DNA of 63,500 bases, filler included. It is 5 parts of 5 records of this genome, joined end to end, with 100 filler letters (N's around TTAATTAATTAA, not from the genome) between each part and the next. Parts side by side here need not be neighbours in the genome. Positions count along the whole stretch, not along the records: positions 1 to 26,223 come from SRR31156797_6871; 4 more parts are not named here. One strand, written 5' to 3'. The translations under genes were made by a program, and so were the position numbers. The notes below the pieces were generated by a model, which did no database searches, was not told the DNA's origin, and saw only the letters and a list, made by a program, of their open reading frames with translations. Below, in pieces: positions 2,415-35,654 of the stretch (the first letter of the stretch is position 1; every line of letters begins with the position of its first letter).

Positions 2415-3173
2415 CTATTTTTTTATCCTAATAACCAAATATCCATTTTCTTTATTTATATCTTCTTTTACATCTGTATCAGATAATAAATCCACTCTAA
2501 CATCTTTTTTCTCATATCCTAGTTTTCTTATAAGGTTTCTTGCCCCAATTGACCTTGCTAAAGATATTTGTTTTGATATTGTTGCACTTACTCGCCCTTG
2601 TACATCTGCAGCATTTATCAAAATTTGATGTTCTCCATATTTATTTCTTGCTTCTATTATGAAATCTTTTAATTGTTTTGTAATAGTATTATCAAAGAAT
2701 ATTTCATCCCCTTTAAAAGTTACAATAAAGTAATCATCAACATTAATAATTTGTTGTTTAGATTTTTTATCATCATCTTTTCTATCTTTTACATCAATAC
2801 CACCAGCTTCAATTTCTGATTCCTCTTTCTCTTTTGCTTGAACAGTCCTTTCTTGAATGATTTTTCTAAGTCTTATAATCTCATTTTGCATTTTTGCAAC
2901 AGATTGAGTACTTGTAGTACTTTCTGTTTGAACATTAGGTGTTGGAACTTGCTCTTGAAACAGTTTAACAGTTCCTTCACTTGGATTGTCATTTACTATC
3001 AAATCATCTGTTGCAATTGACCCTGTATATGAAACTTTATATTTAAATTGTGCATAATATCCAAGGTTTACAAGTACAACTAGTAAGAATAAAAGCATTA
3101 CTAGAATTACTGATGAGAAAATATCAACAAATGATGGCCATGGGTTAAACTCATCTTCACATCTTTTTGCCAT
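2415..3173 (-). CDS. SiiA/MotB-like inner-membrane channel subunit with periplasmic OmpA-like domain
   Basis: N-terminal EDEFNPWPSFVDIFSSVILVMLLFLLVVL is a single TM with the conserved Asp (D17), closely matching the Salmonella SiiA N-terminus as I recall it (EDESNPWPSFVDTF). C-terminal 'ISLARSIGARNLI' resembles the OmpA-like LS-xx-RA helix. Confidence 0.8.
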   Translation of the reverse strand: MAKRCEDEFNPWPSFVDIFSSVILVMLLFLLVVLVNLGYYAQFKYKVSYTGSIATDDLIVNDNPSEGTVKLFQEQVPTPNVQTESTTSTQSVAKMQNEIIRLRKIIQERTVQAKEKEESEIEAGGIDVKDRKDDDKKSKQQIINVDDYFIVTFKGDEIFFDNTITKQLKDFIIEARNKYGEHQILINAADVQGRVSATISKQISLARSIGARNLIRKLGYEKKDVRVDLLSDTDVKEDINKENGYLVIRIKK

Positions 3174-3185: not shown

Positions 3186-4325
3186 TTATTTTTTCTCTAA
3201 TTTATCTAATCGAGTATTCAATGACTCAATTAACTCTAGTAAAAGTTTATTATTCTCTTCTTGTAAAGATAAACTTTTCTTAATACTTCTATGTTCAGCT
3301 AAGATTACATTTGAAACTTCTTGTAATGATTCTTCCATAACTGAAGCATTTGAGAATTGATTTACATTCATCTCTCTTAAGCTTGTAACAACATTTTCTA
3401 AAAGCAGAGATTCTTTCTCTTTTGTTTTATTATTATCAACCATACTTTCAGAGATAAGATTATATACATTTTCTGCAGCTCTGTTTGATTTATCAAGTTT
3501 ATCGGTGAAGTCTCCCATAGTGTCAATAAATACATCTAAGAACCCTTGCATATTGCCTCCACCTATATTTTGGTTAGCAACTGCTGAAATACCTAGTTCT
3601 GTTCTTGCTTGCTCCATTGCATCTGAAGACTGAGAATCGATAATCTTACCTTTCATCCAATCTTCAACATCTTGAAGGAAACCTGCTTGATTTCTAGTAA
3701 GAATATATTGCATTACATTCAAAATCACCGCTGATGCAACACCAAATAAAGAAGAAGCAAACCCTATTGACATACCGCCAAGTGGTCCAGAGAACTTAGT
3801 CATAACTTCGCCAATATCAATATCATCTCCACCAAAAGAAAGAATAATCGCACCCATCTCATCAATTGCAACTAAAAGACCTGTAAATGTACCAAAAAGT
3901 CCCAACATAAGAGAGGTTCCAACGAAAAAATTCGTATAACCTTTTTGATTAAAGAACTGTTCATTTAGCCATTCACTTACATTTTTAGCTTCATCTTGAG
4001 TAAAATATAAAACACCTTTTTGTGCTCTTTTATTAAACATATGTGCAATAGTTGCTGGGAAAACCCCTGTAATACCTTGAAGATAGAACTCTAAAGCTTT
4101 TCCTTTTTTGTATGCTAAAATACCAAATGTACCAGATAGCATAGTAAGTTTTATTGCTGCTTGATAAAGTATTAGTAGTCCAATAGAAAAGATAGTTAAA
4201 ATAGCAACATTAAATGTAAGTGTTGCTAGAAAGAAGCTTGTAATTAACTGAATATTAGAAAAAACTAAAAACAGAATAAATAATAGAAATATAAAATATA
4301 TTTTTAAGATTTTTATACGTCTCAT
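3186..4325 (-). CDS. SiiB/MotA/TolQ/ExbB-like proton-channel subunit with cytoplasmic coiled-coil tail
   Basis: N-terminal TMs, then LMLGLFGTFTGL ... GPLGGMSIGFASSLFGVASAVIL (MotA/ExbB signature helices), then a helical tail. Lies 12 bp upstream of the SiiA-like gene. Confidence 0.85.
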   Translation of the reverse strand: MRRIKILKIYFIFLLFILFLVFSNIQLITSFFLATLTFNVAILTIFSIGLLILYQAAIKLTMLSGTFGILAYKKGKALEFYLQGITGVFPATIAHMFNKRAQKGVLYFTQDEAKNVSEWLNEQFFNQKGYTNFFVGTSLMLGLFGTFTGLLVAIDEMGAIILSFGGDDIDIGEVMTKFSGPLGGMSIGFASSLFGVASAVILNVMQYILTRNQAGFLQDVEDWMKGKIIDSQSSDAMEQARTELGISAVANQNIGGGNMQGFLDVFIDTMGDFTDKLDKSNRAAENVYNLISESMVDNNKTKEKESLLLENVVTSLREMNVNQFSNASVMEESLQEVSNVILAEHRSIKKSLSLQEENNKLLLELIESLNTRLDKLEKK

Positions 4326-4334
4326 CTAGACACC

Positions 4335-5288
4335 TTAAAACATAAATAATAAGATTGAGATAACCAATCCTAATGCAACTGTAGTTACTGTTTTTGTCAT
4401 ATTATCAACAATATTAACAAAAGCACCACTACCTTCAACTGTTTCACCTATTATAACTAAGCCTATGATATTACCCTCAATATCAGCGACTTTTTGTACA
4501 GCTTTGAAATATGTATCGTCTACATAATATCCATCTTCTAAAAGCTGTCTGTAAGCATCTTTACCTTCATCAATAATTTTTGCAAAAAATTGTCCGTCAT
4601 ATTCTTCTTCTTCAACATATAAAGTGTCTACAACTTCTCTATACTTACCATCTCTTGCTTTTATTGATAGTCTATTTAACATTCTTTCTTCAATCATAAA
4701 CATAAAGATTAAATCTTCTTTTGCATAATCTACTTTAAAATTATGTAATTCGTCTTTTAATTCTAAAATCCCAATAAGTCTATCATCTTTGATAAGTGGT
4801 TCAATGTAAACATAAAAAATACCATCTGATAATACTTCAAGACCATAAGCTTTGTTTTTAGAATTTATTACAGAGTTAATATCACTTCTATATTGATTTA
4901 CTTGATTAAAAATTGGATAAAAACTAAGTTGCATTGTGTTAAAACCATTTTCTTTAAATCCATTATTAAATTCACTTATAATGTTTCCAACATTTACTAA
5001 ATTATTATTTTCTATACTAGTAATTAAATCATTATTAGTTTTTGCTGTAATCATGATTTTTTTAAGTGTTTGTTCTTTTTGACTTACTCTATTTTTATAA
5101 TTTTTAATATAAGTGTTAGACATATTTACATATACATCTTTTGAAACACTTTCCGTCATATGAGTTAATAAATACAGAGATAAAAAAATACCTGTAATTG
5201 AAACACCAGCTAAAATTGTAAACCATAATCCCTTGTTTGATTTCAAGTCAGCAATAAATTTTTGCAGAAATTTGAAGAAGCTAAACAT
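4335..5288 (-). CDS. Membrane-anchored Cache-type sensor domain protein without cytoplasmic output domain
   Basis: TM near residues 22-42, periplasmic Cache-like region (AYGLEVLSDGIFYVYIEPLIKDDRLIGILE; VADIEGNIIGLVIIG), second TM at the very C-terminus, then stop. Confidence 0.65.
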   Translation of the reverse strand: MFSFFKFLQKFIADLKSNKGLWFTILAGVSITGIFLSLYLLTHMTESVSKDVYVNMSNTYIKNYKNRVSQKEQTLKKIMITAKTNNDLITSIENNNLVNVGNIISEFNNGFKENGFNTMQLSFYPIFNQVNQYRSDINSVINSKNKAYGLEVLSDGIFYVYIEPLIKDDRLIGILELKDELHNFKVDYAKEDLIFMFMIEERMLNRLSIKARDGKYREVVDTLYVEEEEYDGQFFAKIIDEGKDAYRQLLEDGYYVDDTYFKAVQKVADIEGNIIGLVIIGETVEGSGAFVNIVDNMTKTVTTVALGLVISILLFMF

Positions 5289-5395
5289 TAATTAACCCTT
5301 AAAATAATATATTAAGTATGTATATTATTTAAATTTCCCTTTTATCTAGATGAAAATATAAGAGATTGGAAAAAAAGTAATAATTTATTTTGATA

Positions 5396-6670
5396 TTACT
5401 GTTCACCCATTGCATTTCTACTTATATCTTTTAGTGGTTTAATTATATATTGAAGTATAGTTTTTTTACCTGTAAGGATGTTTATATTTGCTATCATCCC
5501 CGGCATTATAGGCAAATCAGGTGCAAATTGATTTGTATCAACTTTTACTTTTACAAGATAATAAATTGTACCATTTCTATCTTCAAAAGAATCTGGTGAA
5601 ATTGATATCAATTTTCCACTTAATAATCCATATTTTGAAAAATCATATGCAGTGATTTCAACAGATACATCTTGACCAGCCCAAATCTGAGCTCTATTAC
5701 TTGTACCTACTCTTGCTTCAATAGTCAAAGACTCATCAATTGGTGTAATTTCTGCTAATTTATCACCAGATTTTACAATTCCGCCAATTGTATAAAAATA
5801 TAACTTATTAATAATTCCATCAACAGGAGAAACTACATCTTTTCTAAGTTCTCTATCTGTATTTGCTTTATTTTTTTCTATTAATTTATTTATTTCTGCT
5901 TTTAGTGTTGAATACTTTTGTAAATGTTTAGACTTTATTTCAGATTTTACTGTTTCAATTTTTTTCTTAGCCTCTTGAATCTCTTCTTTTATAATTGGAA
6001 TATTATTTCTTGTTTCAGACAGCTTTGTTACTATATTTTGTTTTTTTGAAAGTTCTGCAATATACTCTTTTTTTGAAACAACTTGTTTTTTGTATAAAGA
6101 CTCCAAAATTTTCATATTTGCTTGCGCTAAATTCAGTTCTAAAGATAAATTTTCAAATTTTGTTTCTGCTTCTTTTAGTTTAAATTCTTTTTGTCTCAAT
6201 TGATCTTGAGCTATTGAGATTTTTGTTTTTCGCGTTTTTAAATCTTCAAAAAATATTCTTTTTTCATTTGCAATAATATCTGGTATATTTTCAATTAAAT
6301 CTTTTGGAAAAATAATATTTTCTTTCTCATCAATTGAAGCTTCCAATCTTTGAGCTGCTGCTCTAAAAGCTAATAAATCTATCTCTTTTGATTTTAAATC
6401 AGCTTTAAAAAACTCATTTGACAAAGTATAAATAGTCTGACCTTTTTTAACTTCATCCCCTTCACTTAGTTTAATATCTGAGATTATTCCACCCTCAAGG
6501 TTTTGTAATATTTTTGTTTGACCTGAGGGAACAACTTTTCCTGTTCCTCTAACAACTTCATCAATTTCACTAAAAGATGACCAAGTAATAAAAGCAATAA
6601 AAAATAACATTATTGGAACTACAGAAACATAATAATTCCATTTTTTTTCTTCAAATAATAAATTACTCAA
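5396..6670 (-). CDS. HlyD-family T1SS membrane fusion protein
   Basis: IDEVVRGTGKVVPSG, LEGGII...EGDEVKKGQ, long coiled coil, VVSPVDGII, AYDFSKYGLLSG, IMPGMIANINILTGKKTILQYIIKP. Confidence 0.95.
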   Translation of the reverse strand: MSNLLFEEKKWNYYVSVVPIMLFFIAFITWSSFSEIDEVVRGTGKVVPSGQTKILQNLEGGIISDIKLSEGDEVKKGQTIYTLSNEFFKADLKSKEIDLLAFRAAAQRLEASIDEKENIIFPKDLIENIPDIIANEKRIFFEDLKTRKTKISIAQDQLRQKEFKLKEAETKFENLSLELNLAQANMKILESLYKKQVVSKKEYIAELSKKQNIVTKLSETRNNIPIIKEEIQEAKKKIETVKSEIKSKHLQKYSTLKAEINKLIEKNKANTDRELRKDVVSPVDGIINKLYFYTIGGIVKSGDKLAEITPIDESLTIEARVGTSNRAQIWAGQDVSVEITAYDFSKYGLLSGKLISISPDSFEDRNGTIYYLVKVKVDTNQFAPDLPIMPGMIANINILTGKKTILQYIIKPLKDISRNAMGEQ

Positions 6671-6675: not shown

Positions 6676-8778
6676 TTACCTTTTTTGCTGTAAAGCTGCT
6701 AAGACTTTATCTTTTGGACCATCTGCAACAATTTTACCATTGTTTAAAACTATCACTCTATCAACCAACTCTAATGCTGCAAATCTATGTGTTATTACAA
6801 CTAAAGTTTTATCTTTTAAAACCTGTTTTATATGTGTTATTAAACTTTTTTCCAAACCTACATCAAGTCCTGTTGTCGGCTCATCAAGAACTACAATGGG
6901 AGGGTCATTTAAAATTGCTCTTGCTAAAGCTACAAGATGTCTTTGACCAGCTGAAAGGTTACTTCCTCTTTCTCCTACTTGTAAGCCATCACCTTGTCCT
7001 GATTTTTTAACTAAATCATCTAAACCAGTAAGTTTTATTAGAGTCATTAATTTTTCTTTACTAATTGGGTTTGATAACTCAATATTCTCTTTTAATGATC
7101 CTGAGAATAAAAATGGTTCTTGTGGCATAACTCCAACATTTTGTCTAATTTCAACAGGGTGTAAAGTTGAAACCTCATGTCCATCTAAATATATACTTCC
7201 ACTACTTGCACTATCTAAACCAGAAAGTAACCTTAAAAATGTAGTTTTACCTGCACCAGTTTGTCCAATAATACCAACTTTTTCCCCTGGTTTTATTTTT
7301 AAACTGCACTCTTCTAATGATGGGTATTTGCTATTTTTATAAAAGAAACTTACTTTTGAAAATTCTATTTCACCTTTTATTTTTCCTACACCAATTTCAA
7401 CATTTTTTTGATTTTCTAAAGGGAGGTGCCAAAAGTCATTTATGTTGTTTAAAGACTCTTTTATCTCTTTAAATCTAATAACCATCATTGATGTTTGAAT
7501 TACAGGAACCATAGCTCTACTTGATAAAATAGTTACAGCAATAAGTCCACCAACTGTAAGATTATTGCTTGCTATTTCAAATACTCCAACAATAATTACA
7601 CACATAGTAACAAGTTGAACTACAGTTTGAGAAAGGTTCATTGAGAACACATTTAAAGATTGGATTTTTCTTCCAATAGTATCTGTATTTGCAACTAAAT
7701 TTCTCCAGTTAAATAGTTTTGTTGAAACAGCATTTGAAAGTTTTATTATCTCACTTCCTTGTATTGTTTCAACTAAGTAACTATTTTTTGATTGGATATT
7801 CTCAACATTTTTTTTACTTAGGTTTGATATTGGTATTTGCATTATTATATTAAAGATAATAATCAATATAGCTACTATTAAAGGTACAGCTGCAACAGCT
7901 GGAGATATTAAAAATATCACAATAATTGCTATAAAAAAGAAAGGTAAATCAATAACTTGTAAAATTGATTTTGTAGCAAAAAACTCTTTTATTTGATTTA
8001 ATTCTCTAAAAAGATTTGCTTTTGAACCAACTAACATATTATCAAACTCTGATTTGATACATAACATACGCTTCATCAATTCTTCTTCTAAATAAACCCC
8101 TAAATTTTTACCAACCTTTTCAATAATATGATTTCTTACACTTTTAAAATAGATATCAAAAACTAAAATTATAAGTACCCCTGAAGCTAATACAAACAGT
8201 GTTTCTGTTGCATTATTAGGAACTACTCTATCGTAAACACTCATTGTAAATAAAGGTACTGCTAAAGCAAAAATATTTATAAATATAGTTAAAAAACCTA
8301 TCTCGATATAAGAACGCCAAAAGGCTTTAACAGGAGTCCAGAACCAATCTTTGGTTCTTTCTTTTTCTAAAAGTTCTTCTTTTTTTGGGTCTCTAAAAAT
8401 TAAAATTGCTTTTTTAAAATGTTTTAAAAAGCTTTTTTTCTCTTTTATTTTTTCGTCATTTATTGGGTCATAAAGTGCAATTTCATCACTATCTTTTTTT
8501 AATAAAATAAAAGGTTTATTTTCACTATCAAAAATAATACAAGGGTAAAAATGATTTGGAATATCAGAAGCTTGCATATCTTTTTCTACTGCACTTAAAC
8601 CAACTTCATTTGCAACATCAATTGCAATCTCAGGAGTAAAACCATTGTTTGATACAGCAGAAAGACTCAAAATTGTATCAATTGAAATCTCACCAAAATA
8701 AAAATCAAATATGTATTTTAAAGAGTATAGAAGTGGATGTTCTTTTCTATACTCATCATTTTTTAAAGCTTCGTCCAA
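6676..8778 (-). CDS. T1SS ABC transporter/permease (LssB/LapB type) with N-terminal C39-like domain
   Basis: PLFTMSVYDRVVPN, Walker A GQTGAGKT, signature LSAGQ, Walker B VVLDEPT, H-loop ITHR. The N-terminal C39-like domain lacks the catalytic Cys (LLYSL). Confidence 0.95.
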   Translation of the reverse strand: MDEALKNDEYRKEHPLLYSLKYIFDFYFGEISIDTILSLSAVSNNGFTPEIAIDVANEVGLSAVEKDMQASDIPNHFYPCIIFDSENKPFILLKKDSDEIALYDPINDEKIKEKKSFLKHFKKAILIFRDPKKEELLEKERTKDWFWTPVKAFWRSYIEIGFLTIFINIFALAVPLFTMSVYDRVVPNNATETLFVLASGVLIILVFDIYFKSVRNHIIEKVGKNLGVYLEEELMKRMLCIKSEFDNMLVGSKANLFRELNQIKEFFATKSILQVIDLPFFFIAIIVIFLISPAVAAVPLIVAILIIIFNIIMQIPISNLSKKNVENIQSKNSYLVETIQGSEIIKLSNAVSTKLFNWRNLVANTDTIGRKIQSLNVFSMNLSQTVVQLVTMCVIIVGVFEIASNNLTVGGLIAVTILSSRAMVPVIQTSMMVIRFKEIKESLNNINDFWHLPLENQKNVEIGVGKIKGEIEFSKVSFFYKNSKYPSLEECSLKIKPGEKVGIIGQTGAGKTTFLRLLSGLDSASSGSIYLDGHEVSTLHPVEIRQNVGVMPQEPFLFSGSLKENIELSNPISKEKLMTLIKLTGLDDLVKKSGQGDGLQVGERGSNLSAGQRHLVALARAILNDPPIVVLDEPTTGLDVGLEKSLITHIKQVLKDKTLVVITHRFAALELVDRVIVLNNGKIVADGPKDKVLAALQQKR

Positions 8779-8781
8779 AGT

Positions 8782-10575
8782 CTACCTATCTATCTTAATT
8801 TTAAAATTTGAAAAAATTTTATCATAAACAGACTGAAATACGCTATCCCAAACTCTTGCAGTTTTTTGTCTAAAAAGCTTAGCACTTGGGTACCAAGGAG
8901 TTGTTTCTCCTTTATTGCCCCATCTCCAATCAGGTATTTTTTGTAAAGGAACCCAAGTTGGAACATCAAGGGCTCCTGCTAAATGAGCAACTGATGTATC
9001 TGAAGATATTACTAAATCTAATTCTTTCATTAAACTAGCAGTTTTTGAAAAATCTGTTAGCTTATGTGTTAAATCAATAATACTATCTTCCAATCCAAGT
9101 TTTTTTATATCTTCATTTTCAGGACCAACTTGTAAAGAATAAAGGTTGATTTTCGGATTATTTGCTAAAGGTTTAAAATACTCTAAACTAAATACTTTCC
9201 CCTCATAGCTTTCACCTGTAACCGATGCACTCCAACAAATACCAATATTTATTTTCCCTTTTTCCTCTTTTATTTCCAACTCTTTATCTTTGTTTGCAAA
9301 AAGATAAGGAAACTCTTTTGGTAAATCTTTTGGTGCTTTTATCTCTAAAAGTTTTGGCATACTCATAATTGGTAAGTGGTAATCAAACTCTGGAGTTGGT
9401 TCACTTCTATTTGTTAAAATATCTATTTCATCGAGAGATTTAAATAACTCTTTTAATTCATTTCTACATTTTACTGCAATTTTACAAGGAAATTTTTCTT
9501 TAAATGGTTTTAAAAATCTTATAAACTGAATAGAATCCCCAAAACCTTGTTCAGAATGTAAAAGAATAGTTTTATTTTCTAAATCCTCTTTTCCTGTAAA
9601 CATTGGCTTAGAAAAGATATCTTTATTGTTTAAAATATGAGATAACATCTCTTCTTTTCTAAATCTCCACTCGTATTCTAAAAATCCATTTTTATAATCC
9701 CCTTTTGCCAAATACATTGTTGCTAAATCAAAATGTGCATTTTCAAAATCTGGTTTTAGTTCAATTGCTTTTTTGTAGGAATCAATAGATTTTTTAACTT
9801 GTCCCAAATACTTATAAGATGTACCAACATTACTATAAGCATTTGCTCCATTTGGATCAAGTTCTATAGCTTTTTCATGTAGCTTTGCTGCTTTTTTATA
9901 GTCATGAAGTTTATTATAAACATTTCCTAGATTTGTATAAGCTCCACCATTTGTAGGATTTTTTTCAATAGCAATATTTAAAGATTCAATTGCTTCATCA
10001 TAAAGTTTCAGTTTGTTATAACAAGCTCCAATATTGCTATATAATTCATAATATTCTGGATTTAATTTTAGTGCAATTTTGAAAATATCAATAGATTCTT
10101 GATATTTTTTTTGTTTGTATAAAACTACCCCTATATTATTTACTGCTTTGTCATATTTTGGATTTACTCTTACAGCTTCTTTGTATGATGCAATAGCTTT
10201 TTGGTAGCTATTTATTTTTTCATATACCATTCCAAGATTATTGTATAATTGAAAGTTTTGAGGGTTTACTCTAATCCCATCACTATAAACTTTTAGCGCT
10301 GCTTTATAATTACCTGTATCTTTGAGTAGATTTCCTAAGTTATTATAACTTAGTTCATATTTTGGATTAGAATTTATAGCCTTTATATAACAATCATAAG
10401 CTTTTTTATTCTCTTTTTTTATTTTATAAATAACTCCCAAGTTACATAAAGCTTCTGTATTTTTATCTTCACTTTCTAAAATATTTTCATAAATTTCAAT
10501 TGCTTTATCAAACTCTTTTTGTTTGAAAGCTTCATGTGCTTGATTAAATAAATCTTTTATATCATTTTTACTCAT
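8782..10575 (-). CDS. TPR-repeat protein with C-terminal GT-B (GT9-like) glycosyltransferase domain
   Basis: About 8 TPRs (YNNLGNLL, YTNLGNVY, etc.), then YEWR, EQGFGDSIQFIRF and DLVISSDTSVAHLAGAL...DWRW...WYPSAKLFRQ. Confidence 0.85.
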   Translation of the reverse strand: MSKNDIKDLFNQAHEAFKQKEFDKAIEIYENILESEDKNTEALCNLGVIYKIKKENKKAYDCYIKAINSNPKYELSYNNLGNLLKDTGNYKAALKVYSDGIRVNPQNFQLYNNLGMVYEKINSYQKAIASYKEAVRVNPKYDKAVNNIGVVLYKQKKYQESIDIFKIALKLNPEYYELYSNIGACYNKLKLYDEAIESLNIAIEKNPTNGGAYTNLGNVYNKLHDYKKAAKLHEKAIELDPNGANAYSNVGTSYKYLGQVKKSIDSYKKAIELKPDFENAHFDLATMYLAKGDYKNGFLEYEWRFRKEEMLSHILNNKDIFSKPMFTGKEDLENKTILLHSEQGFGDSIQFIRFLKPFKEKFPCKIAVKCRNELKELFKSLDEIDILTNRSEPTPEFDYHLPIMSMPKLLEIKAPKDLPKEFPYLFANKDKELEIKEEKGKINIGICWSASVTGESYEGKVFSLEYFKPLANNPKINLYSLQVGPENEDIKKLGLEDSIIDLTHKLTDFSKTASLMKELDLVISSDTSVAHLAGALDVPTWVPLQKIPDWRWGNKGETTPWYPSAKLFRQKTARVWDSVFQSVYDKIFSNFKIKIDR

Positions 10576-10583: not shown

Positions 10584-13500
10584 CTAATTTGTAACTAAAT
10601 CAATTTGAACATCTACTGTTCCACCATTTCCATCATTTAATGTATATGTTGCACCATCACTTAAAGCTGTAGAGTCTGAATCATCTCCACCAAATTTGTT
10701 ATTTGAACTATCTGTAAATTCTATTTTTGAAGCATCACTTGAATTTAATCTAATAATTAAGTCATCCGTTCCATTACCCCAAGCATCAATTAACGAACCA
10801 TCAAGAGTCCACTCTGCATTTGTTCCTCCATCACTTGAATCAGCTGCTGTATTAAAAGTCATTCCTGTTAAGTCTATTGTTTCCATATTGCTAAAGTCAT
10901 CAACATCACCAAAAGTTGTGTCTAAAGAGATACTGTTTGTAGAACCAGTTACTGAAACTGTATCATTATTTGCTCCACCATCAATATTAAAGCTATCACT
11001 ATCTAAAGATGTGAAGTCTAATGTAAAGTTATCATCACCAGCTAAACCATCAATATTTTGAGGTTCATCTCCACTTAGAGTAATAGAATCATTTGATGAT
11101 GATAGATTTAGGTTTTCAAAATCGTTTAGTTTACTGAAGTCTAAATCTCCATTTACACTTGTATTTCCAAATGATAAAGTATCGTTTCCTCCAGCATCAT
11201 TAATATTTGTAAACTCTGATGTAAAGTTGTTGAATTCTGTTGTGTTATCAAAAGTGATTGTATCATCACCACTAGATAGATTTAAGTTTTCAAAGTTTGA
11301 AACATCAATCAAATTAGCTGAATCAATAGTAACGCCCGAATCTGTTATATTTAAAGTATCATTTCCACCAATGCCTGCATCAATATTATCACTTGTATTT
11401 AAATCTGTTACCGAAGAAACATTTACAGTATCATCACCTGTTCCAAGATTAACTGTATCATTTCCACTATTTAGATTTAAAATATCGTCATTTGAAGTTC
11501 CAACTATTGTTGTACTACTTGATGAATCATTTATTGTAGTTGTTCCAGAGATATTTACATTTGATAAATTCATTGAAGAATCATCTGCATTTACAGTTAA
11601 GTTTCCTGAACCATCTACAGATAATGTACCAAGAATTGAATCATCAACACTCATAGTTCCACTATTAATAGTTAGATTATCTAAACCTGTGAAATCACCT
11701 GTGAATGTATCAGTTCCACTCCATTGTGCATTTAGGGTATTATTGTTTGTAACTTTTGTAAAGTCCATATTTGTAACACTGTCTAGGTTTGTGATATTTA
11801 AAATTGAATCATTTGTAATTGTTGTAACACTGTTTATAGTTGAAGCATCAACTTGCATTGTTCCAGAAGAAACTGTCAGTGTATCTACACCAGATAAGTT
11901 TCCTACAAATGTTCCATTTCCATCCCAAGTTGTATTTACTGTTCCACTTATAGTTGAAAGGTTAGCGTTTAGTGTTCCATCTAAATTTGTTACTTGAACT
12001 GTACCGTTATTTGTTACAGTTCTTCCAGAAACTAAAGATGCATCAGTAGTTAAAGTTGTACCTGAGTCAACCAATACTTGTGAGTTTTGGAAGTTTCCAG
12101 TAAATGTTGAATCAGCTGTAAACTGAATTGTTTCAGTTCCTGTTAATCCAAGAGTTGAGAAGTTTTGAGAAGAATCGCTATCTATTTGAACTACAATACT
12201 TCCATTTCCAGTTACATTTAAAGTTCCTAAAATATCATCACTAACTGTCATAGTTCCACTATCTACACTTAAAGTATCAACATTTGTTAAATCTCCTGTA
12301 AATGTACCTGTTCCACTCCAAGAAGTATTAATAGTATTTACATTAATTGTTGAGAAATCTATATTTGTTGTTTCAAGGTTATTTACTGTAAGAGTACCTG
12401 AACCTGAAATTGTTGTTGAATCTATTTTTGAAGCATCGGCAACAAGTGTTCCATTTACTACAATTGAAGATGCTGTATTTATTGTTCCTGTTGACACAGT
12501 CATAGTTCCACTTTCAATTGTAAGAGCAGCAGTTCCAACATCACCTGTAAATGTCCCATCTCCACTCCATGAAGCATTTACATTTCCACTAATTGATGAT
12601 AAATCAAAACTTGGATTTGCTTCAAGGTTAGTAATATTTATAGTTCCATTATTAGTAATTGTTACACCATTTAAACTTGCTGCATCAATTGTAAGTGTTT
12701 TTCCACTTGCAACAGTTAGTGCTGTGATACTTGCGTCTAAAGAACCTTCAAGGTTTGTATTTCCATTTATATTTAAAGTTTCAATATTTGAAATACTAAC
12801 ACTTGAAAAATCTAAGTTATCAGTATTTATTGTTAATGTATCTTGATTGTCTCCACCATCAATACTTGTAAGATTTGATGTTGAGTTTACAATAAATGTA
12901 TCATTTCCTGCTCTACCATTGTAGTTTGTAAATCCAGCTTCTGCAATTTGAGTAGTTCCTATAGTAATCGTATCAGCTGAACCATCTCCTAAATTTAATG
13001 TTTCAAAACCATTTAGGTTTGTGAAATCTGCATCATTATAAGTTATTGTTCCACTTGTATCTGAAATATTTAAACTATCAGTTCCAGTTCCTGCATCAAT
13101 TGTATCTGCACTACTTAAATTTGAAGAAGAGATATTAATATTGTCATTTCCTGAATCTAACACAAAATCAACAGTATCAAGTGAGTTATCACTTAGTGTT
13201 ACAGTGTTGTTTCCTGATGCAAAGTTAATATTATCTATTCCAGAAACATTTACAAAATCTGCACTATCAATCGAACCACTATTTGCAAATGTGATTGTAT
13301 CAGTTCCACCACCAACAATTGTATCAGAAGAGTCTAAAGTTTCAATACCATTGAAGATAACTTCATTATTACCTGCTCCAAGGTTTAATGATACTCCATC
13401 AAGATAACTATCACTTGCACTTAATGTAATCTCATCATCACCATTTGCGAAGTTTACATCTGAAATATTAGTTACATTTGAGAAGTCACCACTTGTTATT

Positions 13501-16500
13501 TGTCCAGAACTTGAGAATGTAACATTGTTTGTTCCACCATTTCCATTTATAACATCATTACTGCTTAGATTGTCAATTGCATAATTAAATGTATCATTTC
13601 CTGTTCCACCTGTAATATTGAAGTCTTTTGTACCAACGGTGATGTCATTTCCACCATTTGCAAGTTCAATATTTTCTACATCTACATTTGTTAATTGATT
13701 TGCTGTAATAGTTCCATTATCTAAGAATCTTAAAGTATCTATTCCATTATTTCCATTTATAACATCTGCACTTGATAGATTTGCAATATTAAACTCAAAT
13801 GTATCAGCTCCACTTCCACCTTCAATAGTACTATTTAGAGTTCCTACTGTAACTGTATTTGAACCATCACTTAAATTTATTGTTTCAATTGAAGATACTG
13901 TTGTTAAATCAACATTTCCAGTTCCATTAATATTTAAAGTATCATTACCAAGCCCACCATCTATCGAATCAGAAGTACTAAGTTCTGTATTTGTAATATT
14001 TACAATATCATCTCCAGCACCTAGATTAACTGTATCATTTCCTGAACTTAAGTTTACAATATCAACTTTATCACTCATAATGATATTGTTATCTGAACTA
14101 CCATCATTTAGCGTTAATGTACCTGTAAAGTTGTCATTGTTTATTGAGCTTAAATCAACATTTTCTGTTGTAGTTGCACTATTTAAATCAATAGCACCGG
14201 CACCTGCAATTATCATTGCACTTGTTAATTGTGTAGTTAATAGTGTTAAAGTTTGTGATGCTGCAACATCATATCTATTTATAGCTCCTAAGTTCTGTGA
14301 ACTTAGGTTAATACTAGAATCAACATTTAATGTAATATCACCATTTCCTGTATTTGTTAAGTTATCAAAATCATGGTCACTTGCTGTAGTTGTTGCATTG
14401 ATTATAATATCACCATTTCCAACTGTATCAATTATTTCTCCATCAACTTGTGTTGCATCAACTGTTAAAGTAACTCCTGAATTTACATCAAATTCGTCAA
14501 AAATATTTGTTCCCGTACCTTCAATGTTTTTTGAACTTAAATCAATATCACTAGTTACATTTAATGTAATTGTTCCAGTTCCTGATTCGTTGTTTACTGT
14601 CACATTATCAAAATTATGGTCATCTAAGTTAGTTGTTGTCTCAACAATAATTTGACCGCTTCCTTGAGTATGTAATGTAATGTTTTCATTATTTAAAGCT
14701 GTAGCACTTACTGTGATAACTTGACCATCTTGTGCTAAAATCTCTTCAAAGTTTATTAATTCAACTGATGATAAATCCATACTTGAAGTTACACTTAATG
14801 AGTCAGTTCCTGCACCTGCATCTAAAGTATCAATATTATTTACGCTATTTAAAGTAAAAGTATCATCTCCTGAACCACTTATGATTTTTTCTACATTATT
14901 TAATGTATCTGTATTTACACTGTCTGTTGCTGTAACAGTTGATGAACCATTTACTGTAACATCAATATTTGAACTTGATGAAGTATAATCAACAGTATCT
15001 GTTCCACCTTCTCCATTGAATGTGATATTATCGATTGCATCAGTATTGAAAGTATCATTATTGTTTGAACCTATGAAGTTTTCAAAACTTTCAAAGTTAT
15101 CTGTACCCACACCAGCACCATTTGTAGTACCATCATTATTTGAAACATTGAAAGTTACGCCACCAGTTGCAGAAGATACACTTAATGTATCTGTTCCAGC
15201 TCCACCAAGTAGACTATTATTGTAAATATCCCCTTGAACAATATCATCTGAGTCTCCCATTTGAACATGTTCAATATTTGAAATAGTATCACTAACAGCA
15301 CCCGTTGCAGTTCCAGCAGATAAATCAATATTTACAGAACCAGTTACATCAGTATAGTTTATCCAGTCACCAGTAGTTTCACCACCTTCTCCACCATCAA
15401 TTGTGTTTGTTCCTGTTCCTCCATAAAGAGTATCATCTCCAGTTCCACCTTGTAGATTATCATCTCCACCTGCACCAACTAAGATATCATCACCTGCATT
15501 ACCTATAAATGTATTATTGTTTGATTCACCTGTGATATTATCATTACTATTTGTTCCAGTTAAGTTCTCAATATTTGATAATGAATCTGTACCATCAATG
15601 TTAATAGTTGTTACTCCTGAATCAGTTAATGTGACATTTAAAGGTCCTGTTGCATTAGTATAATCAACAGTATCGCTATTTTCTCCACCATCAATTACAT
15701 CATCTCCTGCACTAGTTATAAAGGTATCATCTCCAGCTTCACCATACATATTATCATTACCAGTTCCTCCATCGATGTAGTCATCATTGTCTCCACCATG
15801 AAGTTCATCATCTCCTGCTAAACCATAAATAGTATCAGTTCCACCTTGACCATAAATAGTATTTCCTACAGTTAAACTATTATCACCAGTTAATGTATCT
15901 GAAGAGTTACTTCCTACAATGTTTTCAAAGTTTGAAATAGTGTCATTTCCTGTTGATGTTCCAGTTGATAAACCAGTATCTAGGTTTACAGTTACACCTG
16001 AAGTTGCATTTGTATAAACTAAAGTATCGATATTGGCTCCACCATCTAATGTGTCATTTCCAGCTCCACCTTCAACAATATCGTTTCCATCGCCTGCATT
16101 TATTTCATCATCACCAAGTAATCCTTGAACATAGTCATTACCTGCACCACTATTAATAGTATTATTTTCACTATCAGCTTTGATATAATCATCTTTATCA
16201 CTACCATCTACATTTTCTACATCATACATTTTTGTAGAATTGTTTGTACCTGAAGATACAAACTCAATATTGTTGTCGATTAACATATCAACTGTAATAT
16301 CATAGTTTGTAGAATCACTATCTGGATCAACTAAAATATTTGAGTTAGCATCCCCTGCTGTTCCATCAAGATTACTAGTTAAGATTACTTTATCTGCATT
16401 TCCATCTCCACCATAGATATAATCAGATTTTCCCTCTTCATTTGTAGTTACAGTAAATGTATCATTCCCGCCTAATCCATAGATTATATTTGTAACTCCA

Positions 16501-19500
16501 TCTTCACCTATTAAGATATCATCTTGAGAAGTTGCTGTTAGGTTTTCTACATTTGATATTGTTTGAGAATTTCCAAAGGCATCTGTACTTGTTCCTAAAC
16601 CTAAATTTACATCTACACCTTGAGTTCCCTCTTTGAAAATAACAGTATCTTCATCATTTCCACCATTAATTGTGTCAGTTCCCTCTTCATCATGTATAAT
16701 ATCAGTACCATTGTCTCCTGATAAAATATTAGTACCAGAACCACCCCAAATAGTATCGTTGTTTTCACCACCTGCTATATTGTCATCACCTGCATTACCA
16801 TATAGTCTATCATCTCCATCATCTCCTCTTAATACATCAGCACCATCTCCACCAAAGATTAAATCAGCACCTTCATTACCATTGATAATGTCATCACCAC
16901 CCATTCCAAGAACAGTATCATTACCTTGTGATGAACTTACAGTATTGTCTCCATCATCTCCAACAAATGTATCATCAACATTACTTAAATTAAATCTTTC
17001 AAAATCTGCTGTACCATCTGCTTCTTTTAAAATATAATCTGTTTCATTTCTTGAATCTGTAACTAAGAAAAACTCTTGGTCTCCATTGACTGTATCAAGT
17101 CCACTTAATGTAATTGTAGTTGTTTGTTCAGAAACTGATGTATCAGCAACTCCATCATCATCTAAATCTATTGAGGCATCTTGAAGTATTATTTTTACAC
17201 TATTTCCAGTATATGAGTTTCTATAGTCAAGTAAGTCTTGTCCTGCACCACCAATTAGAGTATCACTTCCTCCACCAGCTCTTGCATTATCATCTCCATC
17301 ACCTAAATCGTATACATCATCTCCATATCGTCCTATTACTTGATCATTTCCATCATACATAATAAATGTATTACTTACATCAGAACCCCAAATTGTTGTT
17401 GATGCGCCTGATTGTCTATCAAGTACATTTTCAATGTTATAAATTCCATTTGAAGATGAATTTAAATCGATATTTTCTGTGTAGTATTCTAAACTCAACC
17501 AGTCACTTCCATCTTCACCATCAACATAGTTATTTCCAACTGAGTTAGAATGGAAAATTGTATCATCTCCATCACCTGCTAAAATAGAGTTATCTTCTGT
17601 GTCAACTCCACCTAAAGTATCAACTAAATCTGTACCAATAATATTTTCTATTTGTGAAATCAAATCAAAGTCTGTAGTTGAGTCATTGTTTATTACTTTT
17701 ACATAAGTGCCATCAATATCATCATTTGCACTATCTAATGTGTAGGTAGAATCTGTTAGTTTACCACTTAAATCAACTGTAATTCCATTTGATGAGTTAG
17801 AGTAATCTATCCAATCTTCTTCTAAGTTTGCACCACCTACAGAATCACCATACATAACAGCTTTATCAAAGTTACCAGTAAATGTATCTATACCCTCTTG
17901 ACCGAATGCTACATCTTCACTTGTATCATCAGTATCAGTTCCTGTATTTATGATATCACTTCCTGTTCCGGCATAAATAGTATCAAATCCACCTAATCCA
18001 TTTATTGTGTCATTTCCACCATATCCAAAGATAGTATTATCGTTGTTATCACCTGTTAATCTATCAGCATAATTTAATGAACCAATAATATTTTCAACAT
18101 TACTAATTGCTCCTGATTCTGTATTTCCATAACCATCTTCGTTAACTGTAGATGTTTGAAGATTTACATCAACTGAAGCTTCAATATCATAGAAACTTAT
18201 AACATCTTCACCATCTCCACCGTCATAAGTATCAACTCCATCACCACCAATTAATGTATCATTTCCATCATTACCAAATAGGTAATCAGATCCATTTCCA
18301 CCATTTAATGTATCATCTCCACTATTACCATCAAGAGAGTTATTATTATCGTCACCAATTAATGTATCATTGTATGTAGTTCCAAGCAGGTTTTCTATTC
18401 CTGAGATTGTTGTACTTCCTAGACCACCTGAGATTTGACCATCTTGCATTCTTGCATTTACTGCTGAATTCAAGGCTTCAAAGCTAAGCCAGTCTCCTCC
18501 TCCAGTTCCTGTTGTATTTGAACCACCTTCAATAGCATCTCCACCACTTGTTGCAATAATTGTATCATCCCCAGCACCTGCATTTATATCATTCCAATCA
18601 TCAGTTCCTTTTATAATATCATCATGCGCAGAACCAATTACTTTTTCAACAGAAGTTACATCATCTTGACCACCAAATCCATCTTCCATTACATGGTGAG
18701 CAACTGCAACATTATTTTCATCTGTTTGATTTAAATAAACTCTAACACCTACATCTGCATCTGCAAAATCAATAGTATCTGTTCCTGCTCCACCATCAAT
18801 AGAGTCATTTCCTGCTTGACCACTTAATGTATCATCTCCATTTTCACCATATATAGTATCATCTCCAATACCACCATAAATAGAGTCCATTGAACCTTGT
18901 CCATAGAAAGTATCACTATAGTCAACTCCAACTTGTGCAGTTCCATTAAACCCTAAAATAGTATCTGTATCAGCAGAACCTTTTATAATCTCTATATGGT
19001 CTTCTAAAGTATCTGTTTCACTTCCAACTGTAACAGTTCCAAAGTCATTAGAAACTCCACTTCCTAGATTTACAGTTATCCCTGTAGTTGTGATTTGTTC
19101 ATAAGTTAAAGTATCACTACCAGTTCCACCAGTAATTGTATTACTTCCTTCTCCTGAATAGATTGTATCATCACCAGTTCCGGCATCTATTGAATCATCT
19201 CCTGTTGCAGCATATCTATTGATAATATCATTTCCTGCTCCACCATCTATTGAGTCATTTCCTTGTGAACCATCAAGAGTATCATTTCCAATTCCACCCT
19301 CTATAGTATCGGCATTTGAACCACCTGTGATAGAGTCATTTCCATCTTCACCTTGAAGTAAATTTGCTCCTGCAATTCCAACAATTGTATCATTACCTAA
19401 ACCACCAACTAAAGTATTTGCAACACTACTTCCTCTTAGTTGGTCATCACCATTTGTTCCAATTACAACTTCAATCTCTCTAATTGTATCAACTACTGCA

Positions 19501-22500
19501 CTTCCACCATTTTGGTATCCATCATCTGTAGCTTGTTCTAAACCTAGGTCTACAATAACTGCATTTTCACCTGTATTGTTTACATCAATATTACTAAAGT
19601 CTAAAGTATCAACTCCATCTCCACCAATAAATGTATCAACACCTTGTGAAGCATAAAAAGTATCATTTCCACTATAACCATCTAAAGTATTAACTTCAGA
19701 GAAATCATCACTTCCTTTTATAGTATCATTATTTCTTGTACCAACAACATTTTCAATACCTTCAACACTATCATATCTTGTTGCATCTCCTACAACTTTT
19801 ATCTCTTGTTCATTGTTTGTTGTTGAGTCATTGTCATCTAAAGACAAATCAACATTAATTGCTGTGGCGTCAGTTAAATAACTATAATTTACAGTGTCAT
19901 TTCCACTATCTGTATGTGTTCCAGCAGTTACACTTCCACCATAAATCATATCATTATCAAGTCCACCTAAGATAGTATCATTATCTCCTTGTCCTTCAAT
20001 AACATCTGCTCCTAATCCACCAATAAGAATATCGTTTCCGCCATTTCCTAAAAGTGAGTTATCAGAATCATCTCCAACCATTGTATCAGCAAGATTTGAA
20101 CCTATAACATCTTGAATATCATAAAGTCTATCTGTACCTTCACCTACAGCTGTTTGTGTTGCAATAATTGTAGTTGTTTCATTTAATAAACCAATAGTAC
20201 TTGATGTTGAAGATAAGTTTAGTAGTATTGAATGTGATGAAGAAGAATAATCAACTACATCTCTATCAGAATCAGCACTTGATACATTTAAAGCATTACC
20301 ATAAATAAAGTCATCACCTGCACCACCTGCAAATGTATCTGCACCAGTTTGACCAACTAAGGTATCACTTCCTGCTCCACCGTAAATAGTATCGCCTGAT
20401 GCTCCACCATCAAGTATATTATTGTTTCCATCACCAATAATAGTATCAACAGAAGAAGTTCCTGTAATATTTTCAATTCCTGTAATAAACTCTGCATTTG
20501 CAAAACCATCATCTTGTACTCTATATGTTGATTCTGTTCCTAAAACTTGAGTTGCATTTAAATCAACTTTTATCCCTTGTGTACCATCACTGTAATCAAT
20601 TGTATCAGAAGAACCATCTCCTCCATCAATATAATCTTGTCCCTCTAAACCTTTAAAGATATCATTATCTGCTCCACCAAATAATGTATTATCTTTATCA
20701 TCACCAGTAATATTATCTGCTCTTTCTGTACCAATTACATTTTCTATTTCTCTAAGAACATCAGTATTTCCATTTGATAAAGCAGTTCCTTCTGCTGCAT
20801 TTGAACCATTGTTATCAGTATCTAAATCAACAGTTACACCATAAGCTAAATCTGAGAAGTCTACTGTATCTTCATCTGCACCACCATTTATAACATCTGC
20901 CGCAGCTCCACCTCTAATAGTATCGTTTCCACTTCCAGTTGTGATTGTATTTGATTGTGCATCTCCATAAATAGTGTCATTTCCTGAACCTGTAATAATA
21001 TTTTCAACACCATCTAAATACTCAGCATTTCCATATCCGTCATTTTCAATTCTATATGTGTTATCACTTCCGTCTGTTTGTGACTTTGTCATATCTATAA
21101 CTACATTTTCACTTCCCGTTGTAAAGTCAGCTGTATCAACTCCACTTCCACCAATTAGCCTATCTTGTCCATCAAGTCCTATTAGGTAATCATTTCCTGC
21201 TCTACCTTCAAGGATATTACCTGAGTCGTTACCTGCAAGATAATCTCCTTTATCAGAACCTATAATATTTTCAATATTTGTAATAGTGTCATTTCCATAT
21301 TCAGCATGGATTCTTTGTGAAGTTGTTATTGATAAATCTACTTCAATACCAAGATATGCATCAACTCCACCATTAGTTGCATCACCATCATTTGAATCAA
21401 CAACTCTATCATCTCCAGAATCGTCATTTATTGCAATTGAACTATAATCAAGTGTATCACTAGTACCATTTACAGTTCCAGCATCAGTATCATCTCCATC
21501 AATAATATCATCGCCTGCACCAGCATAAATATAATCGTTTCCAGCTCCACCTTCTACAGTATCATCTCCTGCCATTTCTGAAATTGTGTCATTTCCAGCT
21601 AGACCTTTTAAAATATTTGCAGAGTCATTACCAGTGATTTGGTCAGCCTCTCCACCTAAGTTTGTTCCTGTAATATTTTCTATTGAGTTAAAAGTATCAG
21701 TTCCAATTGATGTTCCAACAGCAAATGAGTTTGCAATATTTGCTTGGATAGATGCACTTTCATTACTATAATCAGCAGTATCACTTCCTAATCCACCAAT
21801 TAGGTTGTCATTCCCTGCTCCACCAATTAGTGTATCATCTCCATCTCCACCATCTAAAGTATCAACTCCTGCTCCACCATCTAAAGTATCACCATCTTCA
21901 TTACCATATAAAATATCGTTATCATCTCCACCTTGGATATAATCAACACCAGAACCACCATAAATAGTATCAAGTCCTAAACCACCAATTAATATTTCAG
22001 TACCAGTTGCATTTGCTCCACCATCGATATAATCATCACCTGCTCCACCATTAATAGTATCTGTACCTGCATTACCTATTAAACTATTTGCATCAGAATC
22101 ACCAGTAATTGTATCTGATAATGATGTACCATTTATATTTTCAACATTTACTATTGTATGGTCATCAGCATTTCCATCTACACTTACACTTGAAACCACA
22201 TTATTATTTAGTGTTACTTCTACACCAGTTGTTGAAACAGAAACATTACTATAATCAACAGTATCACTACCTCTTGTTAAATCAGATTCTGTTCCACCAT
22301 CTATTTCATCTGCTGTAAATTCTGTACCGGTAAATAAGTCATTTCCAGTACCACCTATCAAGCTATCAGCATCTGCTCCACCTATTAAAGTGTCATTCCC
22401 TGATCCACCATCTAAATAATCTTGTCCTGCTCCACCTGATAATTCGTCATTTCCTGCCATACCATAAAGCGTATTTACAGCAGTATCACCAGCAATAGTG

Positions 22501-34270: not shown

Positions 34271-34852
34271 CTAAAAATACGCTTTAAGGTCCGACCAGGT
34301 CGCATCGGTCGAAACCGGAATATCCTGCCAGTAGGCGATCACCCAATAATTTTGATTGTTACGGATCAATTTTATATAACTTCGTCCATTAAAAAGCTTA
34401 TCAATACCCTGCCGTGTATGATTGGCAACGATATTGTAATTGATCTGATATGAGATCGTATCACCTTCATCACTATCCGGAATGTCATCATTTGTTATCG
34501 TCAGTAAAAGCAAGGAATCATCCGGACATGCCGCTAGTAATTCCTGAAAGAAAAGTTCTTCATCCTGCAGGGTCCAATCGAGAGGAAAAGTAACCGCCTT
34601 TACCGGAGCGGCATCAAATTTAAAGTACTTCCCGGATGTCAGGGAGTCTGACAAACAACGGGTATAAATATCATATTCTCTATAAGTAAAAGCATTTTCA
34701 AGATTCCGGAAAACCGTTCCGGGATCTGTGGGAGGAACAAAATGATCGATAGACGGCCGTTGAGGCGGCTCAGAACCGCGCATCAATGCTTCACATCCCA
34801 CAAATATAGCACCTGATATCAGGAACAATAATATGTATTTATTAAATCTCAT
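34271..34852 (-). CDS. Hypothetical lipoprotein
   Basis: Lipobox FVGC; tightly packed in the operon. Confidence 0.7.
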   Translation of the reverse strand: MRFNKYILLFLISGAIFVGCEALMRGSEPPQRPSIDHFVPPTDPGTVFRNLENAFTYREYDIYTRCLSDSLTSGKYFKFDAAPVKAVTFPLDWTLQDEELFFQELLAACPDDSLLLLTITNDDIPDSDEGDTISYQINYNIVANHTRQGIDKLFNGRSYIKLIRNNQNYWVIAYWQDIPVSTDATWSDLKAYF

Positions 34853-34856
34853 TTTT

Positions 34857-35645: not shown

Positions 35646-35654
35646 TTATTTCTC

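Follow-up and report, generated by a model that had tools for sequence, protein, structure and literature searches.

What can a sensory domain do for a secretion machinery when it is attached to nothing that could pass a signal on? This question is raised by a 317-residue Cache protein without any output domain, encoded at positions 4335-5288 of the minus strand in a 63,500-nt stretch of DNA (hereafter the window), which is made up of five parts from five records of one genome, joined end to end with 100 filler letters between each part and the next, and whose positions 1-26,223 come from SRR31156797_6871; all the window genes given below are on the same strand. The gene lies in a cluster for a type I secretion system (T1SS), directly ahead of two genes for proteins that resemble the components of membrane motors. 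A preliminary description, made from the sequence alone, had seen in it an orphan Cache sensor which may signal within the membrane to a SiiAB-like channel and act as a ligand gate for the secretion motor. The most economical reading of the evidence presented here is that the Cache protein is a dedicated inner-membrane third subunit, whose periplasmic input would modulate a motor of the Mot/Exb/Tol type; we attribute to this reading a probability of roughly 45%, so that it is preferred but falls short of even odds.

The open reading frame (ORF) of the Cache gene starts with an ATG, and a Kyte-Doolittle scan of its product detects two hydrophobic segments, corresponding to a first transmembrane helix (TM1, residues 20-43, positions 5160-5231) and a second one (TM2, residues 297-317, positions 4338-4400). 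TM1 is preceded by a cytoplasmic tail of 19 residues (5232-5288; MFSF..LK.NK), which is predicted to be an amphipathic helix and is helical in an AlphaFold2 (AF2) model, and the two membrane helices enclose a periplasmic double-Cache (dCache_3-like) domain (residues 44-296, positions 4401-5159). Four lysines are found among the 19 residues of the tail, and according to the positive-inside rule such a lysine-rich tail fits an N-in topology. The order of the protein is an N-in tail, TM1, the periplasmic double-Cache domain, TM2 and the stop, as F317 is at once the last residue of the protein and the last residue of TM2. The TAA stop codon (4335-4337) and a 9-nt spacer (together 4326-4337) separate the gene from the ATG of the next ORF (3186-4325), and a Shine-Dalgarno-like AAGGTG overlaps the stop codon 5 nt ahead of that ATG. 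Neither Pfam nor NCBIfam detects a HAMP, MCPsignal, kinase or cyclase domain in the Cache protein or in the next gene, and NCBIfam has no meaningful match for the Cache protein. Thus, the layout that the preliminary description had read from the sequence, a Cache domain between two membrane helices with the stop right after the second one, a next gene 9 bp further on with its own ribosome-binding site, and no HAMP, chemoreceptor or kinase part behind it, is confirmed in each of these respects. Read-through of the stop codon into the downstream gene was considered and ruled out: although the ATG of that gene shares the frame, it is immediately preceded by a TAG in the same frame, and the spacer, which measures 6 to 15 nt depending on the locus, does not preserve the frame. 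A scan for promoters and terminators between 2300 and 6800 found 28 promoter-like sites where 28.5 were expected and 0 terminators, and is uninformative about the 107-nt gap (5289-5395) between the Cache gene and the preceding HlyD gene.

The nature of the periplasmic part was addressed through profiles, structural models and comparison with chemoreceptors. Pfam dCache_3 (PF14827) matches the window protein below threshold (E = 0.046; 13.7 bits, the cut-off being 25.7), and 15 of the 38 aligned family members are matched at E <= 0.01, the best of them with E = 3.9e-11. The AF2 model obtained from the 38-row family alignment has a mean pLDDT of 86.6 and is composed of a helix at residues 2-17, a long helix at 19-83, strands within 120-180 and 194-283 that form two alpha/beta (PDC) modules, and the final membrane helix. 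The PDB structures that Foldseek ranks highest for it are for the most part dCache sensors (TlpC and TlpA of H. pylori, TlpQ of P. aeruginosa, vpHK1S-Z8, Tlp3 of C. jejuni and DctB; E between 1e-5 and 1e-3), and the structural aligner VIA gives Z scores of 10-11.7 over residues 41-297 for LuxQ, KinD, DctB, vpHK1S-Z8 and others. At the sequence level, the sensor half of a 730-residue chemoreceptor bearing dCache_3 and MCPsignal domains aligns in register (28% identity over 156 residues, E = 6e-11), and the comparison of the family profile with PDB sequences returned a weak match to the DctB sensor alone (E = 0.016). Although the window protein by itself remains below the Pfam cut-off, the Cache-like character proposed earlier is borne out by the models and by the alignment with the chemoreceptor, and the dCache fold of the periplasmic part can be regarded as confirmed at the level of sequence and predicted structure.

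A sensor domain that ends after its second membrane helix could be what is left of a chemoreceptor, a possibility already raised in the preliminary description. A protein search recovered 482 homologues at E <= 0.001. Among the 120 listed, 117 measure 314-320 residues, the other three have 230, 274 and 303, and none exceeds 320; the closest of those listed reach 80% identity, and the named relatives belong to Halarcobacter, Arcobacter, Poseidonibacter, Malaciobacter and Aliarcobacter. An exhaustive search among cluster representatives gave 95 matches, 32 of which are full-length proteins of 302-334 residues with identities down to 21%. The same search also reached 13 long proteins (504-820 residues, E from 1.6e-8 to 3.2e-4) through their first ~300 residues, and MCPsignal and dCache_3 domains were each found in 12 of these 13. 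All 38 aligned family members and all 23 orthologues derived from syntenic loci share a common end column directly after TM2, and no stops or frameshifts occur in 26 orthologues. The nearest genomic paralogues are methyl-accepting chemotaxis proteins (MCPs) of 663-730 residues, the nearest of which scores E = 1.7e-44 with the family profile. In an unrooted maximum-likelihood tree, a single branch with support of 100/100 separates 23 output-less proteins from 16 chemoreceptor sensor regions, a topology that agrees with one origin of the short form without proving it. Since no listed homologue is longer than 320 residues, the length is kept down to 21% identity and the end column is common, the Cache gene is not a remnant: it is a genuine stand-alone gene, neither a truncated chemoreceptor nor a pseudogene. 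The expectation that the homologues would end at the same position as the window protein has therefore held, and the pseudogene alternative, according to which they would be full-length MCPs, fails because every orthologue stops after TM2. Longer fusion proteins, for instance of Cache with TolQ, were not found at E <= 0.001 among 7998 scored candidates of 556-2000 residues, which is weak evidence of their absence.

The Protein Atlas places the Cache protein among Campylobacterota clusters of 304-321 residues, and also contains similarly short Cache, CHASE4 and dCache_1/2 clusters in other phyla; these are leads only, and the bare output-less architecture is probably not unique to this family. 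In seven genomes, open frames of 282-288 residues match the family profile from positions 26-52 to position 277 with E of ~1e-21 to 1e-22 (for example G146:C9:16297-17001, G340:C1:286085-286798 and G338:C1:316793-317503), and these may represent a second family of short output-less Cache-domain proteins.

The genomic environment links the Cache gene to the motor-like genes. The set of loci studied consists of 26 loci with 26 distinct orthologues, 8 of them from named contigs and 18 from species-representative genomes. A gene for a TolQ-like protein is located on the same strand and in the same cluster as the Cache gene in 26/26 loci. It follows the Cache gene after 6-15 nt in 18 of them, and is in turn followed by a gene for a MotB-like protein and by TolC; in two more loci the spacing is ~670 nt. 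In two loci (L041 and L043), the ABC transporter and HlyD genes have been inverted with respect to the Cache, TolQ-like, MotB-like and TolC genes, which implies that these four form a block that behaves as a unit of its own and whose linkage outlasts rearrangement. The distribution of the genes was studied in 401 genomes of Campylobacterota, a phylum label that rests on the scope of the search (the phylum of genome G001) and on the names of the matches. Orthologue-grade matches to the family profile were found in 22 of them: 21 are full-length at E <= 6.3e-75, with open frames of 304-351 residues, and the remaining one is split over two contig ends. The orthologues are followed by a gap in score, after which chemoreceptor paralogues appear with E >= 1.7e-44 and frames of ~600-880 residues. 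The TolQ-like profile also retrieves 22 genomes, all at or below 7.4e-92, and no other genome reaches 1e-10. Both genes are carried by the identical 22 genomes, and none of the 401 has one alone; these genomes are mutually related and do not amount to 22 independent events. Matches resembling dCache_3 are present in 68 of the 401 genomes, but the Cache gene only in the 22 with the motor gene. A specific link between the Cache gene and the motor-like pair is supported by these observations.

The conservation of the protein was compared among 23 orthologues, the 38 rows of the family alignment and 11 chemoreceptor paralogues. The mean pairwise identities in these three sets are respectively 0.53, 0.47 and 0.21 for the N-terminal tail, 0.50, 0.43 and 0.20 for TM1, 0.54, 0.49 and 0.17 for TM2, and 0.32, 0.23 and 0.32 for the periplasmic domain. 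The membrane parts and the tail thus show about twice the conservation of the periplasmic domain, and the pattern is reversed in the chemoreceptor paralogues, where the identity rises up to 0.42 in the distal beta-sheet region; this control consists of paralogues of different organisms with no orthologous series, and the contrast is indicative rather than rigorous. In the tail, M1, F2 and K19 are invariant in both the 23- and the 38-row alignments. TM1 carries the family-specific conserved residues W22, F23, T24, S30, G33 and I34, and TM2 the motif VALGLVIS.LLFMF, in which L306, G307 and L308 are invariant in the 23 orthologues. A joint alignment of 60 family members with 16 MCP paralogues, which is approximate at such divergence, distinguishes positions conserved in the output-less family and not in MCPs (F2, F4, K19, L21-T24, S30, G33, I34, G149, G281, E282, T302, A305, G307 and L308) from those conserved in both groups, which correspond to the core of the fold (E151, G156, P164, G173, E176, F234, Y254, Y260, F261, D269, G272 and G276). 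Except for G149, the family-only positions fall in the tail, in TM1, in the juxtamembrane stretch before TM2 or in TM2 itself. The earlier proposal of a signal passed on within the membrane fits this conservation of the tail and both helices, and would presuppose a contact with the motor.

The presumed partners are encoded immediately downstream. The gene at 3186-4325 encodes a TolQ/ExbB/MotA-like membrane protein of 379 residues with a cytoplasmic coiled-coil tail, assigned from a weak match to PF01618 (E = 0.019), from its orthologues (15 of 23 match PF01618 at E <= 0.01) and from its fold. An AF2 model of residues 1-235 (pLDDT 82.1) finds TolQ of the TolQRA complex as its best Foldseek match, then ExbB and ZorA, and then PomA/MotA, with probabilities of 1.0 for TolQ, ExbB and ZorA against 0.93-0.98 for PomA/MotA, identities of 12-20%, and TM-scores of ~0.5 for the former three against ~0.35 for the latter. 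The full-length TolQ-like profile was swamped by coiled-coil matches when compared with the PDB, and nothing meaningful was obtained with either neighbour as a single-sequence PDB query. In a deep clade of loci (L049-L056; for instance L050:10607-12766), the TolQ-like protein measures 700-790 residues as compared to ~380, its coiled-coil tail being approximately doubled. The following gene (2415-3173) encodes a single-pass MotB/TolR/SiiA-like protein of 252 residues, defined from an alignment of 22 sequences. Asp17 in its membrane helix is invariant in 22/22 sequences, within the motif NP...VD.FSSVIL, as are N10, P11, V16, Q202, R207 and N213. The protein ends in a small conserved C-terminal domain with a KQISLAR..RN motif, which we take to be reminiscent of OmpA-like domains; Pfam OmpA does not match the protein, and a profile of the 22 sequences gave no hit in the PDB, where neither the SiiA periplasmic domain nor an OmpA-like chain came up at E <= 1. 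From the fold matches to TolQ and ExbB and the invariant Asp17, it is plausible that both neighbours constitute a proton-driven motor of the 5:2 type. As for the qualification of the pair as SiiAB-like, the T1SS context and the Mot/Exb/Tol fold agree with it, but orthology is not demonstrated: the membrane domain of the TolQ-like protein is closest in structure to TolQ and ExbB, and the profile search of the PDB found no link to SiiA in sequence.

The reading of the Cache protein as a third subunit of this motor is built on its architecture and fold, the conserved end after TM2, the separation from chemoreceptors in the tree, the genomic coupling and the concentration of conservation in the membrane. 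From these observations we infer a physical contact with the motor, a direction of signalling and an effect on secretion or adhesion. In this scenario, the sensor half of a dCache_3 chemoreceptor would have lost everything past TM2 and would have been recruited to a motor made of TolQ/ExbB-like and MotB/TolR-like proteins, driven by the proton-motive force and serving the T1SS of a giant RTX-repeat surface protein. Because there is no cytoplasmic domain, the output of the protein is limited to two membrane helices and the 19-residue tail. The periplasmic dCache module could take its input from a ligand specific to the lineage, or by touching the substrate or a periplasmic component of the secretion apparatus; the resulting shift of TM1 and TM2 would be passed laterally to the TolQ-like ring, and this would start or stop the flow of protons through the motor and thereby control whether the giant protein is retained or displayed. 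A third, helix-anchored protein on the ring is found in the solved TolQRA and TonB-ExbBD structures, as read from the titles of the PDB entries. Among the literature searched in full text, we found no description of a Cache protein associated with a T1SS-linked motor. If correct, this reading would offer a concrete handle on the target or the input of the motor, and hence on how the Mot/Exb/Tol pairs of T1SS use the proton gradient for a giant adhesin. The Cache protein is also a clear example of the sensor domain of a chemoreceptor put to new use without any signalling output.

Several points weigh against this reading, in addition to the indicative character of the chemoreceptor control. In six of the 26 loci, the genes are rearranged into the order TolQ-like, MotB-like, TolC, TPR protein and then Cache. 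The genomic coupling would be equally well explained if the Cache protein were bound to the ABC/HlyD pump instead of the motor. The most serious difficulty concerns the sensing step, the weakest link of the proposal. The membrane-distal module is the usual ligand site of dCache domains. The residues of this module that are conserved in 75-100% of MCPs (equivalents of 97, 116, 122, 127, 130 and 131), which presumably line the ligand pocket, are variable in the output-less family, where the frequency of the top residue is 0.17-0.35. One Arg, a pair of His, one Asp and one Ser (equivalents of 97, 122, 124, 127 and 130) are among the residues conserved only in MCPs, and at position 124 the family has a Tyr (0.70) where MCPs have a His. 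Since these residues are not kept, a small-molecule ligand common to the whole family appears unlikely from the alignments, and the ligand gate of the preliminary description is not supported. A lineage-specific ligand could still be bound: an Arcobacteraceae subgroup conserves the stretch around residues 124-140 (FYP..NQ.NQYR), where an insertion is present in the deep clade. Alternatively, the periplasmic domain may be a structural arm instead of a sensor.

The rest of the cluster is what the motor would serve. Upstream of the Cache gene are found an HlyD-family T1SS adaptor (5396-6670; TIGR01843, E = 1.8e-102) and an LssB-type ABC transporter of the T1SS, the N-terminal domain of which is C39-like (6676-8778; TIGR03375, E = 4.7e-225, above the cut-off; PF03412, PF00664 and PF00005). 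They are preceded by a protein with TPR repeats (TPR families) and a glycosyltransferase-like C-terminus (8782-10575; PF01075, E = 1.9e-5), which is syntenic in most loci, and by a giant RTX-repeat protein of 5120 residues (10584-25946; PF00353), the presumed substrate of the system. The start of this giant protein (22947-25946) contains 18 PF00353 stretches in the first 1000 residues and no obvious retention module of the LapA type. In locus L050, a gene for an FkbM-type methyltransferase is inserted between the ABC transporter and HlyD genes. Downstream of the MotB-like gene, positions 1-2415 encode a TolC-family outer-membrane protein (PF02321, E = 1.3e-39; TIGR01844) with a long C-terminal extension, the frame of which continues past the end of the window. 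The protein, cut by the window end, is longer than 805 residues; its orthologue in locus L001 (12889-17406, 1505 residues) bears a peptidoglycan-binding SPOR domain at residues 935-1005, and the TolC proteins of the deep clade have a normal length of ~460-490 residues.

Several scenarios other than a sensing subunit may explain the association of the Cache protein with this cluster. One is that the motor drives the Cache protein, as it does TonB or TolA: ring rotation or a power stroke would act on its helices, and the dCache domain, as a rigid lever, would push or pull on a target in the periplasm, for example HlyD, the extension of TolC or the giant protein itself, and so contribute to retention, release or tension of the latter. 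We consider this a serious rival, possible but unlikely. The closeness of the neighbouring membrane domain to TolQ and ExbB speaks for such an output arm, as the motors built on these proteins need a third membrane-anchored partner, and so do the strict co-occurrence in 22/22 genomes and the loss of the distal-module residues of MCPs. The succession of partner, ring protein and Asp protein resembles that of tonB-exbB-exbD operons, in which the partner comes before the ring protein and the Asp protein, and the conserved membrane anchor combined with a variable periplasmic part is likewise seen in TonB and TolA. Yet, the Cache protein has two helices and a compact globular domain where TonB and TolA have one anchor, a long extended linker and a docking domain at the C-terminus; judging from the length of helix 19-83, the domain probably stands only ~60 A above the membrane, too short a distance to reach the outer membrane; and neither the 23- nor the 38-row alignment contains a conserved His in TM1 like that of the TonB/TolA motif. 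A complete three-part proton-driven device on the T1SS, with a TolQ/ExbB-like ring rotating or stroking about a wall-anchored MotB-like dimer and a dCache arm, taken over from a chemoreceptor and equivalent to TonB/TolA, that transmits force to the giant RTX protein in the secretion channel or feels load from it, is doubtful to the same degree. If it were real, the energy-transducing partners of 5:2 motors would include a new class, and there would be an explanation, open to testing, of what T1SS adhesins gain from SiiAB-type motors. Another scenario, which seems rather improbable to us, ties the Cache protein to the pump: it would bind the ABC/HlyD complex or the substrate in transit and have a role in assembly, quality control or retention. 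HlyD-type adaptors use an N-terminal cytoplasmic helix, a feature they would share with the Cache protein. The gene is always inside a T1SS cluster, directly after HlyD in the window and in many loci, and it is away from the motor genes in the six rearranged loci; in L052, the only one of these whose ORFs are listed, the giant gene apparently comes directly after the Cache gene, as deduced from a long stretch without a closed ORF. Protein-binding periplasmic domains, those of LuxQ (Z = 11.6) and DvhD (Z = 9.9), are among the VIA matches (accessible parts of PMC13090378). Nevertheless, the spacing of 6-15 nt to the TolQ-like gene in 18 of the 26 loci points to the motor, the Cache/TolQ-like/MotB-like/TolC block is separate from the inverted ABC/HlyD genes in L041 and L043, and L045, L048, L049 and L051-L055 have the motor genes but no ABC/HlyD within ~9 kb.

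The two remaining scenarios are held to be very unlikely. In the manner of LapD or of the dCache-bearing DvhD, the dCache domain could trap a LapG-type protease that would otherwise release the giant protein, with no cyclic di-GMP module being involved. The periplasmic dCache of DvhD, which regulates T1SS adhesins according to the accessible parts of PMC13090378, is a structural match (Z = 9.9), and LapG-like genes (PF06035) were found in 5/5 related genomes tested. These protease genes are nonetheless far from the cluster, and in the two genomes inspected they stand beside a canonical LapD with LapD_MoxY_N, GGDEF and EAL domains; the scan of window ORFs turned up no PF06035 gene, the giant protein opens with RTX-like repeats over its first 300 residues and shows no obvious LapA-type retention module there, and without a cytoplasmic switch there would be nothing to regulate the trap. 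Least probable of all is a connection with chemotaxis, whether the protein forms pairs with full-length dCache_3 receptors, as a split or decoy chemoreceptor, or is a decaying fragment without a role in secretion. The homology of the sensor domain with the MCP sensors of Campylobacterota agrees with this idea, and one database source labels a homologue "methyl-accepting chemotaxis protein". Against it stand the 26 orthologues without stops or frameshifts and the constancy of length down to 21% identity, the 100/100 branch that sets the family apart from MCPs, the conservation of membrane helices where those of MCPs are not conserved, and a distribution that tracks the motor gene (22 genomes) and not the dCache_3-like matches (68/401); moreover, no gene with an MCP signalling domain adjoins.

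Other parts of the window contain genes of independent interest. A 386-residue protein (59678-60838), in which an HD domain is joined to a PycTM (Pycsar effector) domain, is a possible anti-phage defence effector. In the 1470-residue product of 52657-57069, TPR repeats accompany a Ser/Thr kinase domain of the eukaryote type, CotH kinase-like, VTC-domain and DUF4956 genes adjoin each other at 47275-51307, and five consecutive ORFs of 193, 262, 308, 524 and 275 residues at 34271-38994 have no Pfam match at E <= 1e-5.

Among known systems, the closest in context is that of Salmonella pathogenicity island 4 (SPI-4). In the accessible parts of two sources (10.1101/641415; PMC12607715), SiiA and SiiB are presented as T1SS-associated, proton-conducting Mot/Exb/Tol proteins that are dispensable for secretion but required for adhesion and invasion dependent on SiiE; SiiF, the ABC transporter, is a binding partner of SiiB, and the use made of the proton gradient is stated to be unknown. 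The consulted portion of PMC12607715 lists six genes, siiA-F, and describes no Cache protein among them. The cluster in the window shares with SiiAB a T1SS for a giant surface protein that is accompanied by a multi-pass protein and by a single-pass partner that carries an Asp in the membrane and a small domain in the periplasm; it differs by the strictly co-occurring third membrane protein and by a ring protein whose fold is closest to TolQ/ExbB. With TolQ-TolR-TolA and ExbB-ExbD-TonB it has in common the fold of the ring, the number of three genes and a membrane-anchored third partner with a conserved anchor. Unlike TolA and TonB, however, the third partner has two helices and a globular dCache domain, without a single anchor, an extended linker or a C-terminal docking domain, and the context is a T1SS cluster rather than Tol-Pal or a TonB receptor. 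The dCache_3 chemoreceptors are related to the Cache protein by a common fold, homologous sequence and shared core residues, but in the Cache protein HAMP and MCPsignal are missing, the distal residues of MCPs are lost and the membrane helices are conserved. Such stand-alone forms are reportedly rare, as more than 90% of Cache domains are fused to output modules and one heme-binding stand-alone Cache family is described in the available part of 10.64898/2026.02.01.703092.

The layout of a periplasmic domain between two inner-membrane helices, in the setting of a T1SS adhesin, also recalls LapD and DvhD. In the part of PMC13090378 that was accessible, DvhD of Desulfovibrio is a receptor of cyclic di-GMP whose periplasmic dCache takes part in adhesin control. 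The Cache protein differs from LapD in that it has no LapD_MoxY_N, HAMP, GGDEF or EAL domain detectable with Pfam, and no cytoplasmic module for cyclic di-GMP. Canonical LapG-LapD pairs are encoded elsewhere in related genomes (L057:7571-11218; L058:4285-6755), and G001 has two tandem LapG-like genes with a giant open frame ~2.5 kb upstream, genes for an outer-membrane beta-barrel and an MFS transporter being located in between. These pairs and this frame imply that the organisms run at least two differently controlled giant-protein systems. Finally, a WalK-YycH model appears at rank 13 among the Foldseek matches of the Cache protein. YycH/YycI with WalK and FliL with MotAB belong to families unrelated to it, and the likeness is functional: in both, an extracytoplasmic domain on a membrane anchor, devoid of catalytic output, modulates a membrane machine.

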